DNA of 64,000 nucleotides from Escherichia coli (GCF_044324875.1 NZ_CP172185.1); one strand, 5' to 3'. Positions 9,045 to 18,030 are shown, counted from the first letter of the stretch. Numbers and translations: made by a program. Notes: generated from the sequence alone by a model not told the origin.

Positions 9045-9076
9045 TCTCCGGTGGCTAACGCTGCCGGAGTATTTTC
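9045..9076 (+). terminator. candidate rho-independent terminator after hisP
   Basis: Hairpin ctccgg...ccggag followed by tatttt. Confidence 0.5.
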
Positions 9077-9235: not shown

Positions 9236-10126
9236 ATGACAATATCGACAACTTCCACGCCGCATGATGCGGTATTTAAATCTTTTTTACGCCATCCAGA
9301 CACCGCGCGGGATTTTATTGATATTCATCTTCCCGCGCCGCTGCGCAAACTGTGTGATTTAACGACGCTTAAACTGGAACCAAACAGTTTTATTGATGAA
9401 GACCTGCGGCAATATTATTCCGACCTCTTGTGGTCTGTGAAAACGCAGGAGGGAGCGGGTTATATTTATGTGGTGATAGAGCACCAAAGTAAGCCAGAGG
9501 AATTAATGGCTTTTCGCATGATGCGCTATTCCATTGCGGCGATGCAAAACCATCTTGATGCGGGTTATAAAGAGCTTCCATTAGTGATCCCGATGCTGTT
9601 TTATCATGGTTGCAGAAGCCCTTATCCATATTCACTCTGCTGGCTTGATGAATTTGCCGAGCCTGCGATTGCCCGCAAAATTTATTCATCGGCTTTTCCG
9701 CTGGTGGATATTACCGTGGTGCCGGATGACGAGATTATGCAACATCGCAAAATGGCGCTGTTGGAGTTAATTCAGAAACATATTCGTCAGCGCGATCTGT
9801 TGGGATTAGTCGACCAAATTGTTTCGCTGCTAGTTACAGGGAACACTAATGACAGACAGCTAAAAGCCCTGTTTAATTATGTATTACAAACGGGAGATGC
9901 CCAGCGTTTCCGTGCATTTATTGGTGAGATAGCGGAACGCGCACCACAAGAAAAGGAGAAACTGATGACCATTGCTGACAGATTACGTGAAGAAGGCGCA
10001 ATGCAGGGCAAACACGAAGAAGCCCTGCGTATTGCTCAGGAGATGCTGGAGAGAGGTTTAGACAGAGAGTTAGTTATGATGGTGACCCGACTTTCACCAG
10101 ACGATCTTATCGCGCAAAGCCACTAA
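9236..10126 (+). CDS. rpnB: recombination-promoting nuclease RpnB (transposase_31 / PD-(D/E)XK family, YhgA-like)
   Basis: 296 aa; N-terminal HDAVFKSFL motif typical of Rpn/YhgA-like proteins; position matches yfcI downstream of hisP. Confidence 0.8.
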
Positions 10127-10173
10127 TTCTGTAACACCAGGAGTTAACTGGCGGATGTTTGCAGTAAACCACA

Positions 10174-11067
10174 TCAGCGAACAACATCCGCCAGCGCCTC
10201 TTCTAAATCGTACCAGCGAAACGCAAAACCCGCTTCTTCCAGCCGTTTAGGCAATGCTCGTTGTCCACCTAATACCAGCACTGAAGATTCGCCCATTAAC
10301 AGTCGAATGGCGGTCACAGGGACGCGCAAAATGGCCGGGCGATGCAGCGCATGACCGAGCGCATGGGCAAATTGTTCATTGCGTACCGGGTAGGGCGAAA
10401 CCATATTAAATGGTCCACGCAGCTCGTTATCCAGCAGCCAGAGAATGCCGTTGACCATATCATCAATATGAATCCAGGCCAGATACTGCCGACCGGAGCC
10501 AATCGGCCCGCCCAGACCAAGACGAAACGGCGGCAGCATTTTACCGAGAATACCGCCATCCGGTGCCAGCACTACGCCGGTACGCAGCAGGCACACTCGC
10601 GTTTTGTCACTTTGCGCCCGGCAGGCAATCTCTTCCCAGCGGGCGCAGAGTTTATGAGTAAATTCGTTATGCGGCGGTTCCTCTTCGGTAACCACCACTT
10701 CACCTAAGTCGCCATAATAGCCCGTTGCCGAGCCGGAAATGAGTACCGACGGCGGCGTGTCGCTGGCATTAATCAAATCGACCAGTTTTTGCGTGATATT
10801 CCAGCGGCTTTGGCAGAGACGCTCTTTTTGCTCGTGAGTCCAGCGTTTATCAGCAATCGGCTCTCCGGCCAGGTTGATTACCGCATCAACGCCGTTGAGG
10901 TTACTTTGATCGGCAAGCCCTTGCCATAGTGTCACCCGAGGGCCGAGAACGGAACTGGCTTTCTGCGGGTTACGCGTCACTACCGTGATTTGATGGCCCA
11001 GATCCAGCAAACGCGGAATCAAATGGCGACCAATTAATCCCGTCCCTCCGGTGATCACTATGTTCAT
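10174..11067 (-). CDS. yfcH: NAD-dependent epimerase/dehydratase family protein (SDR-like)
   Basis: 297 aa; N-terminal [16 protein letters not shown]ossmann motif. Confidence 0.8.
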
Positions 11068-15811: not shown

Positions 15812-15876
15812 AGAATAAAAAACCGGAAATAGTCACTATTTCCGGTTCCGATATCCGCAGCGCAAAGCTGCGGATG
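15812..15876 (-). terminator. pta terminator region (two hairpins, one with T-tract)
   Basis: Minus-strand hairpins ccgcagc-tttgc-gctgcgg and aaccggaaatagtgactatttccggtt followed by tttttt, directly downstream of the pta stop. Confidence 0.7.
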
Positions 15877-15885
15877 ATGACGAGA

Positions 15886-18030
15886 TTACTGCTGCTGTGC
15901 AGACTGAATCGCAGTCAGCGCGATGGTGTAGACGATATCGTCAACCAGTGCGCCACGGGACAGGTCGTTAACCGGCTTGCGCATACCCTGCAGCATCGGC
16001 CCGATGGAGATCAGGTCGGCAGAACGCTGTACCGCTTTGTAGGTGGTGTTACCGGTGTTCAGATCCGGGAAGATGAACACGGTAGCGCGACCTGCAACCG
16101 GAGAGTTCGGCGCTTTGGATTTCGCAACGTCAGCCATTACCGCAGCGTCGTACTGCAGCGGACCGTCGATCATCAGGTCAGGACGTTTTTCCTGCGCCAG
16201 ACGAGTTGCTTCGCGAACTTTTTCTACGTCGCTACCAGCACCAGAAGTCCCGGTGGAGTAGGAGAGCATAGCAACGCGCGGTTCGATACCGAAGGCCGCA
16301 GCGGAATCAGCGGACTGAATCGCGATTTCTGCCAGCTGTTCTGCGGTCGGATCCGGGTTGATCGCACAGTCACCGTAAACGTAAACCTGTTCCGGCAGCA
16401 GCATGAAGAACACGGAAGATACCAGGGAGCTGCCCGGTGCAGTTTTGATCAGCTGCAGCGGCGGACGGATGGTGTTTGCGGTGGTGTGAACAGCACCGGA
16501 AACCAGACCATCAACTTCATCCTGTTCCAGCATCAGCGTACCGAGAACCACGTTGTCTTCCAGCTGTTCGCGGGCAACGGTTTCGGTCATGCCTTTGTTC
16601 TTACGCAGTTCGACCAGACGACCAACATAGCTTTCGCGAACCACTTCTGGATCAACGATTTCAATGCCTGCACCCAGTTCTACACCCTGAGACGCTGCAA
16701 CACGGTTGATCTCTGCCGGATTACCCAGCAGTACGCAAGTTGCGATACCACGTTCAGCACAGATAGCGGCTGCTTTAACGGTACGCGGTTCGTCACCTTC
16801 CGGCAGAACGATACGTTTGCCCGCTTTGCGCGCAAGTTCGGTCAGCTGATAACGGAACGCTGGCGGAGACAGACGACGGCTGCGCTCAGAAGTGGCAGTC
16901 AGAGAATCGATCCAGTCAGCGTTGATGTAGTTAGCAACGTATTCCTGAACTTTCTCGATACGCTCGTGATCGTCAACCGGAACTTCCAGGTTGAAGCTCT
17001 GCAGGCTCAGAGAAGTCTGCCAGGTGTTGGTGTTCACCATAAATACCGGCAGGCCGGTAGCGAAAGCACGTTCGCACAGTTTAGAAATGCGCGCGTCCAT
17101 TTCGTAGCCGCCAGTCAGCAGCAGGGCACCGATTTCTACGCCGTTCATGGCTGCCAGGCACGCGGCAACCAGCACGTCAGGGCGGTCTGCGGAAGTCACC
17201 AGCAGAGAACCGGCACGGAAGTGCTCCAGCATGTGCGGAATGCTGCGTGCGCAGAAAGTGACGGATTTAACGCGGCGAGTATTGATGTCGCCTTCGTTGA
17301 TGATGGTCGCATTCAGGTGGCGAGCCATATCGATCGCACGAGTCGCGATCAGGTCAAAGCTCCACGGCACAGCGCCGAGAACCGGCAGCGGGCTGGATTC
17401 TTGCAGCTTCGCCGGATCAACATTGTTTACTTTAGCTTTGGAAGAGTCGTCGAAAATCTCGGACAGATCCGGGCGAGTACGACCCTGTTCATCAACCGGT
17501 GCGTTCAGTTTGTTAACGATAACGCCGGTGATGTTGGTGTTTTTGGCACCGCCGAAGCTGTTGCGGGTCAGTTCGATACGCTCTTTCAGCTGTTCCGGGG
17601 TGTCAGTGCCCTGAGACATAACGAAGACGATTTCCGCATTCAGCGTTTTAGCGATTTCGTAGTTCAGAGACTGGGCAAACTGGTGCTTACGTGTCGGGAC
17701 CAGACCTTCAACCAGAACGACTTCAGCGTCTTTGGTGTTAGCGTGGTAGTTTGCGACGATCTCTTCCATCAGCACATCTTTCTGATTGCTGGAAAGCAGA
17801 CCTTCAACGTAGCTCATTTTCAGCGGTTCAGCGGCCGTCGTGGTGGAAGAGTTCGCACGCACGATAGTGGTAGTCTGATCGGGCGCATCGCCACCGGTAC
17901 GCGGCTGAGCGATAGGTTTGAAAACGCTCAGACGAACGCCTTTGCGTTCCATTGCACGGATCACGCCAAGGCTGACGCTGGTCAGACCGACGCTGGTTCC
18001 GGTAGGGATCAGCATAATAATACGGGACAC
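15886..18030 (-). CDS. pta: phosphate acetyltransferase
   Basis: 714 aa with N-terminal [28 protein letters not shown] and C-terminal PTA domain. Confidence 0.97.

Follow-up and report, generated by a model that had tools for sequence, protein, structure and literature searches.

Bidirectional terminators are said to occur at convergent genes, where Ju and colleagues reportedly described them by SEnd-seq in 2019. A different route to a defined 3′ end has been described for Rho-dependent transcripts: in Dar & Sorek 2018 (PMC6061677), precise steady-state ends lie right after stable stem-loops without U-tracts, sequence richer in C than in G and the true, diffuse site of Rho termination lie downstream of the stem-loop, and PNPase and RNase II trim the transcripts back to the stem. 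Convergent genes can also form excludons; in the ExcludonFinder survey (PMC12288877), yfcH-rpnB is one of 165 convergent pairs in Escherichia coli whose transcripts overlap in half or more of 58 transcriptomes. Three of the five rpn genes of K-12 appear in that list (rpnA-bioH, rpnC-panC, and yfcH-rpnB; PMC12288877 Table 1), which suggests that rpn genes often lie tail-to-tail with a neighbor, with no insulating terminator between the two.

Here, we consider a 12-bp inverted repeat at the convergent junction of rpnB and yfcH within a window of 64,000 nt of E. coli sequence (GCF_044324875.1, NZ_CP172185.1), where the gene order is hisQMP, rpnB (+), yfcH (−), folX, and yfcG, and where 47 nt separate the two convergent genes (Table 1). 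The region searched is 100% identical to NZ_LR778147.1. Because features of the locus match those of the Rho-dependent transcripts of PMC6061677, we conclude that the repeat probably acts as a protective 3′ stem-loop of yfcH mRNA after Rho-dependent termination further downstream.

Table 1. Features in and around the rpnB-yfcH junction (positions counted from the first nucleotide of the window)
Feature	Position	Strand	Description
hisP terminator	9046-9069		Intrinsic; loop in the 3-4 nt class, then a T-run
rpnB	9236..10126	+	Transposase_31 / YhgA-like recombination-promoting nuclease (Pfam); convergent with yfcH
Left copy of direct repeat, CTGGTGGATATT	9701..9712	+	rpnB codons L-V-D-I; deletion endpoint in rpnB-less E. 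coli
Best Rho coordinate, approximate equivalent	9930..9950	−	Bicyclomycin-sensitive termination region
C-over-G tract, rut-like	9988..10107	−	C/G of 1.7-2.0 in 80-nt windows; 40-160 nt downstream
Second stem-loop	9998..10035	−	−18.6 kcal/mol, z −2.4; alternative yfcH end just after it; ~150 nt downstream
K-12 yfcH 3′ ends, window equivalent	10138..10142	−	6-10 nt after the stem; tail UUAACUCC(UG)
3′ arm in yfcH mRNA, AACAUCCGCCAG	10148..10159	−	rpnB-yfcH intergenic spacer
Loop, 23 nt	10160..10182	−	Last two yfcH codons, stop codon, and 14 nt of 3′ UTR
5′ arm in yfcH mRNA, CUGGCGGAUGUU	10183..10194	−	Codons Leu-Ala-Asp-Val near the C-terminus
yfcH	10174..11067	−	NAD-dependent epimerase family with C-terminal DUF1731 (Pfam)
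Other perfect 12-bp inverted repeat, AACCGGAAATAG	15821-15847		3-nt loop

Anatomy and stability of the hairpin

The original prediction, made from the sequence alone, was of a perfect 12-bp inverted repeat at this junction, and a sequence check finds the repeat to be present. Its left arm, CTGGCGGATGTT, lies where it was placed (10148-10159); its right arm, AACATCCGCCAG, is the exact complement of the left and sits at 10183-10194, one base above the predicted 10182-10193, and the spacer is 23 nt long rather than 22. Seven of the 12 pairs are G-C. The right arm was correctly assigned to the yfcH coding sequence, of which it forms codons 292-295 of 297 (3 to 6 codons before the stop), and the stop codon itself (10174-10176) falls inside the loop. 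The loop is able to form a small inner helix and is polymorphic at position 10163 (A in the window, T in K-12 and Nissle, and G in Escherichia whittamii). With the 5′ arm coding and the stop codon in the loop, every ribosome that finishes yfcH presumably has to open the stem, and such opening would further disfavor intrinsic termination under coupled transcription and translation.

Two perfect 12-bp inverted repeats with spacers of 3 to 30 nt are observed in the window, against 0.14 expected per 64-kb window from first-order Markov simulations (at least one such repeat in 10% of the simulated windows). The other of the two, at 15821-15847, is flanked on the minus strand by an A-run ahead of the stem and a T-run behind it, is situated downstream of a minus-strand ORF (15886..18030), and looks like a canonical intrinsic terminator, possibly a two-way one.

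As RNA, the 47-nt segment from arm to arm folds more stably than shuffled controls on both strands, with none of 200 shuffles as stable on either (−20.9 kcal/mol, z −6.13, for the plus strand; −22.6 kcal/mol, z −4.33, for the minus strand). The perfect stem is a minority allele. In the common allele, which K-12 shares, a G at 10183 reduces the stem to 11 Watson-Crick pairs, closed by a terminal U.G on the rpnB-sense strand or C.A on the yfcH-sense strand; the K-12 sequence reaches −28.0 kcal/mol (z −3.3) in a 71-nt context in the yfcH sense, and −25.6 kcal/mol in the rpnB sense, or −30.5 kcal/mol (z −4.8) when the 71-nt context is included.

History of the hairpin and of its neighbor rpnB

Among 5,426 complete genomes of E. 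coli, 5,355 carry the hairpin, each in exactly one place. In all but five of these (5,350/5,355), the 61-nt hairpin region is at least 95% identical, in contrast to the neighboring 3′ coding region of rpnB, which diverges by up to ~10%; the exact 61-nt haplotype of the window occurs in 435 of the 5,355. Low diversity is, by itself, no proof of selection. A permissive Rfam scan of the element returned only noise, the sole overlapping hit being a plant miRNA model (E-value of 8.7).

Among 80 yfcH loci taken from GTDB species, the noncoding arm is restricted to Escherichia (E. coli, E. whittamii, and two further Escherichia species), whereas the coding arm is kept as protein sequence (EEALADV) across the Enterobacteriaceae loci compared. 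The coding arm is ancestral coding sequence, so the hairpin arose within the Escherichia lineage when one complementary arm of 12 nt was gained in the 3′ UTR. In Citrobacter, Enterobacter, Klebsiella, and others, the sequence at the position of the hairpin is unrelated. The two Salmonella loci lack both rpnB and a GNAT gene, and there, a single canonical terminator, made up of a hairpin plus a T-run, serves both yfcH and hisP. The GNAT gene is seen in a Citrobacter locus (L009, 4966-5481), where it encodes an acetyltransferase of 171 aa between yfcH and hisP, in the position that rpnB holds in Escherichia, and has a long inverted repeat of its own in its upstream region; the gap between yfcH and hisP in other non-Escherichia genera is of comparable size (0.6-1.6 kb). 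In E. albertii NBRC 107761, the contig ends 6 codons before the yfcH stop, at the hairpin.

Eight distinct haplotypes are available within Escherichia for a test of covariation, a number held down by the absence of the hairpin from other genera. The stem has undergone five substitutions among them, each a single transition, and no pair has changed on both sides. Four of the five substitutions leave a G.U pair on the rpnB-sense strand and one does so on the yfcH-sense strand, such that 99.0% of cells are paired across haplotypes in the former sense versus 91.7% in the latter; in E. whittamii, the yfcH-sense helix has two adjacent mismatches (−12.9 kcal/mol on the 47-nt segment). On the leading strand of replication, C-to-T changes are expected to be the commoner ones. 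The plus strand of the window is the leading strand (GC skew of +0.04; 2.42 Mb in K-12, left replichore), and the sample is tiny, so we set aside the pairing bias as a sign of function in the rpnB sense. The whole hairpin is missing from ST2747 (NZ_CP007394.1; L002, 3030-3052), where a deletion of 311 bp, equivalent to window positions 10057-10367, fuses a truncated rpnB to a truncated yfcH, both of which are annotated as pseudogenes.

The gene on the other side of the junction is itself variable. About 670-740 complete E. coli genomes (~13%), Nissle 1917 included, lack rpnB, and in these, homology with the window returns at precisely position 10148, the base of the left arm. The rpnB-less allele (compared in L001, 2969-3012, and in the Nissle locus, L093) has 27 nt in place of the rpnB segment of ~1 kb, and those 27 nt, together with the left arm of the hairpin, constitute a 33-nt relic of rpnB codons (window 9680-9712). 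In Nissle, 30 of the 33 positions are identical (local alignment score of 32, where the best of 300 shuffles scored 27). Within rpnB, CTGGTGGATATT forms an imperfect direct repeat with the left arm (9701-9712 versus 10148-10159; 10 of 12 positions, with ~0.04 such matches expected by chance per 1 kb); a 447-bp deletion between the two copies reproduces the observed right junction, and position 5 of the Nissle arm still has the T found in rpnB. At the left junction, which is less clean, window 9145 is joined to ~9676, with an odd ATCTAT.

Since rpnB occupies the same position in E. whittamii and in two further Escherichia species, the gene is ancestral at this site and its absence derived; and since a 33-nt relic of the gene is fused to the left arm at a direct repeat, the strains without it are deletion derivatives and not ancestral empty sites. 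The outer arm of the hairpin thereby served as a microhomology endpoint in the loss of rpnB from a lineage that includes Nissle 1917. That rpnB might be a mobile cassette directed at the hairpin was also considered, an idea ruled out by the presence of an rpnB relic in the "empty" allele and by a junction that is a direct repeat.

Where rpnB is retained, its last ~130 nt (window 10000-10126, compared with L084-L091) are far more variable than the spacer, the hairpin, or the end of yfcH; the 3′ end falls into two deeply divergent allele groups that encode proteins of 296 and ~300 aa, and strain A29 carries an rpnB with an internal stop.

Transcript ends of yfcH and how they might arise

Mapping of 3′ ends was among the checks proposed for the original prediction, and published K-12 data allow it. 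The K-12 equivalent of the hairpin spans 2,422,581-2,422,627 on the yfcH-sense strand, and ends were transferred to the window by alignment. In Supplementary file 1 of Adams et al. 2021 (PMC7815308), Term-seq ends of yfcH are called on the plus strand at 2,422,637 (LB, OD 2.0) and 2,422,635 (M63), 10 and 8 nt past the stem, and are classed as "primary yfcH, antisense yfcI"; none was called in the third sample (LB, OD 0.4), leaving two of three conditions positive. In Supplementary Data 2-4 of TRS 2023 (PMC10687069), the primary yfcH terminus is placed at 2,422,633-635, with the same hairpin printed as its structure. The two maps thus agree on a primary end 6 to 10 nt after the stem, and across both, the ends are narrowly confined to 2,422,633-2,422,637 (the TRS table gives a cluster of 2,422,628-642). 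What was to count against the original prediction, namely, that no transcript ends map here and that the fold is no more stable than shuffled controls, is the opposite of what the data give: ends map at the hairpin, and the fold exceeds every shuffle in stability. An alternative primary end of yfcH is recorded at K-12 ~2,422,776-778 in TRS (PMC10687069), directly after a second stem-loop. This second structure is antisense within the 3′ coding region of rpnB and overlaps a stretch with strain-variable repeats of four amino acids. In the rpnB sense, no end near the hairpin is listed in either PMC7815308 or PMC10687069, which may reflect nothing more than low expression of rpnB.

Farther downstream, Supplementary file 2 of PMC7815308 lists a Rho termination region in the yfcH sense with its best coordinate at 2,422,836, ~209 nt past the stem. 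Reads upstream and downstream number 179 and 18 without bicyclomycin but 93 and 123 with it, for a Rho score of 13.15 (p of 2.1e-26), a score computed on 800-nt windows and, hence, of coarse resolution; the same file lists no Rho region antisense to yfcH. Alternatively, bicyclomycin could be exposing antisense promoters that lie within rpnB. The RNA between the stem and this region contains the C-over-G tract of Table 1, which is antisense to the 3′ coding region of rpnB, and the first 80 nt past the stem in the rpnB sense are rut-like as well (C/G of 2.08).

The sequence immediately around the stem bears little resemblance to that of a terminator. The yfcH-sense tail, UUAACUCC, is U-poor (3 U in 8 nt, although it begins UU), and the sequence upstream of the stem, GAAGAGGCG, has no A-tract; the rpnB-sense tail, CGCCUCUU, likewise has 3 U in 8; and the flanks of the hairpin, GGAGTTAA and CGCCTCTT, show no symmetric arrangement of A-tract and U-tract. 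T-tract scores are 1.95 in the yfcH sense and 0.27 in the rpnB sense, compared with 2.57 for the hisP terminator, whose tail has 5 U in its first 8 nt against 3 for the hairpin; even so, the yfcH-sense score (1.9) falls at the 93rd-94th percentile of random positions in the window. In strains without rpnB, the hairpin is retained and the tail, CGGAAACG, contains no U at all. A consensus terminator scan, which admits loops of 3 to 8 nt, did not call the 12-bp stem and flagged only an inner hairpin of eight pairs with a poor tail.

These results do not support the bidirectional terminator that was originally proposed. An intrinsic terminator has a short loop and at least 5 U in 8 nt, whereas the loop here is 23 nt and either strand has 3 in 8; termination is not Rho independent, as read-through depends on bicyclomycin in the published data (at coarse resolution); and ends are listed on the yfcH-sense strand only in the two data sets. 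The U-tract is missing on both strands, no rpnB-sense ends are listed, and transcription reads through into antisense rpnB once Rho is inhibited. The other half of the proposal, an RNA stability element, is supported for the yfcH strand only, on the strength of the mapped 3′ ends and of a fold that beats its shuffles.

We therefore favor, as the probable explanation, that the repeat gives the yfcH (folX-yfcH) mRNA a stem-loop at its 3′ end. With no U-tract after the stem, RNA polymerase transcribing yfcH would not be stopped efficiently at the hairpin and would continue antisense to the 3′ region of rpnB, where Rho would release it within roughly the next 200 nt, on RNA that is C-rich and G-poor. 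Exonucleases working from 3′ to 5′ would then trim the tail and stall within a few nucleotides of the 12-bp stem, leaving a defined, protected 3′ end 6 to 10 nt past the hairpin. By this account, which we infer from the combined data, the ends come from trimming and not from termination at that spot, and the hairpin prolongs the life of the yfcH mRNA. The second 3′ end, after the second hairpin, fits with successive roadblocks to an exonuclease, and a near-invariant hairpin beside a variable rpnB 3′ region counts for a protective stem; counting against it are the lack of compensatory changes and the greater weakening of the yfcH-sense helix by natural variants.

The positions of the ends admit another source. 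Those lying +8 to +10 past the base of the stem coincide with the canonical release positions of an intrinsic terminator, which speaks against trimming, and a weak terminator of this sort could release a fraction of yfcH transcripts at the two proximal U residues and leave Rho to mop up the read-through. The UU at the start of the tail, its high T-tract percentile, and the narrow range of ends (2,422,633-637) all agree with such a terminator, but it is an unlikely one: its first 8 nt hold 3 U where the hisP terminator has 5, its loop is 23 nt, the terminator scan made no call for the 12-bp stem, bicyclomycin-dependent read-through is strong, a second downstream end is present even without bicyclomycin, and the ~13% of strains that lack rpnB keep the hairpin with a U-free tail. 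It is also conceivable, if doubtful, that the stem stabilizes 3′ ends in both directions, with transcripts of rpnB, or read-through transcripts from hisP, being terminated by Rho in antisense yfcH and trimmed to the same stem. This would not make the element a two-way intrinsic terminator and is compatible with a protective stem for yfcH. The rpnB-sense fold is at least as stable (−20.9, z −6.1; K-12, −30.5, z −4.8), the G.U-preserving substitutions (4/5; 99.0% paired) favor that sense, the first 80 nt past the stem are rut-like there, and the pair is in the convergent excludon list of PMC12288877. Set against this are the lack of any rpnB-sense end in Adams 2021 and TRS 2023, the lack of a listed Rho region antisense to yfcH, and a substitution bias that is confounded by the leading strand and drawn from five events only.

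It is improbable that the hairpin has an effect with no selected function, having originated in the ancestor of Escherichia through a single event (for instance, a template switch that copied the complement of yfcH codons) and merely happening to stall exonucleases. Its absence outside Escherichia, the lack of covariation in a stem whose coding arm is constrained by the protein anyway, and the two yfcH-sense mismatches tolerated by E. whittamii would all be expected of such an accident; however, the noncoding arm and loop are near-invariant over 5,355 E. coli genomes while neighboring rpnB is highly variable, and the hairpin was kept when rpnB was deleted. An element acting as DNA (a protein-binding palindrome, a cruciform, the end of a mobile element, or a recombination site for an rpnB cassette) is scarcely credible. 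Its one attraction is that the boundary between presence and absence of rpnB coincides exactly with the base of the left arm (window 10148), but this boundary is explained by the 12-nt direct repeat and the 33-nt relic and not by inverted symmetry; moreover, the element is single-copy and, thus, neither a REP nor a transposon end, a spacer of 23 bp is atypical of a dimeric operator, and no Rfam or repeat-family match was found. The REP element was separately ruled out as a candidate by the single place per genome, by the half of the hairpin that is coding sequence, and by the absence of a REP consensus.

RpnB_S has been described as the intragenic antitoxin of the RpnB toxin-antitoxin defense system (Zhong et al., bioRxiv 10.1101/2023.05.02.539157). 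In the window, a candidate start for RpnB_S consists of a Shine-Dalgarno sequence (AAGGAG, 9953-9958) and an in-frame ATG (9965, plus strand), from which a 53-aa product would extend to 10126; this candidate has no Pfam match and fits the published RpnB_S. The RpnB_S segment is spanned by yfcH antisense transcripts, by both of their 3′ ends, and by the Rho region, so that yfcH transcription reaches the antitoxin-coding end of a defense gene. We mention, as a very long shot, that a leaky hairpin, together with the Rho zone downstream, might gate the entry of convergent yfcH transcription into the final ~190 nt of rpnB and so tune the ratio of antitoxin to toxin; if true, this would be excludon-type control of a gene-within-a-gene defense system.

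Comparison with known systems

With the intrinsic terminators of the window (hisP, 9046-9069, and 15821-15847), the yfcH hairpin has in common a perfect, G+C-containing stem at the 3′ end of a gene and ends 8-10 nt after it, but it lacks their U-tract, its loop is long, and it shows strong Rho-dependent read-through. As in bidirectional terminators, a single palindromic hairpin is common to a convergent pair with a short spacer (47 nt); unlike the genes that such terminators insulate, however, yfcH and rpnB are reported as overlapping, in the form of an excludon, and have ends on one strand only. The transcripts of yfcH and rpnB overlap across the junction as in other convergent excludons (PMC12288877), although the excludon concept refers to genes that interfere with each other by way of RNase III and a long antisense overlap, whereas the yfcH hairpin is a local structure at a 3′ end. 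There is also a likeness to REP sequences that act as 3′ stabilizers, in that an extragenic palindrome is able to block 3′ exonucleases after Rho termination.

The closest match is with the Rho-dependent transcripts of PMC6061677. As in that class, a stable stem-loop lies directly upstream of the narrow steady-state 3′ end of yfcH, the tail is U-poor, no A-tract precedes the stem, the element is not a REP, and both C-over-G sequence and bicyclomycin-sensitive termination follow downstream of the hairpin. Two traits set the yfcH hairpin apart from the class as described there: its 23-nt loop is much longer than typical terminator-like loops, and its 5′ arm lies within the coding sequence, with the stop codon in the loop. 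The element is thus of a known and described kind, and the 3′ end of yfcH was already present in two published tables; as another example of how an E. coli mRNA can acquire a defined 3′ end without an intrinsic terminator, it matters little alone. Its value is rather that of a worked case, in which a palindrome that is perfect and conspicuous, and lies between convergent genes, is nevertheless not a bidirectional terminator, and in which a half-coding hairpin was formed, within the Escherichia lineage, by the addition of a single noncoding arm.
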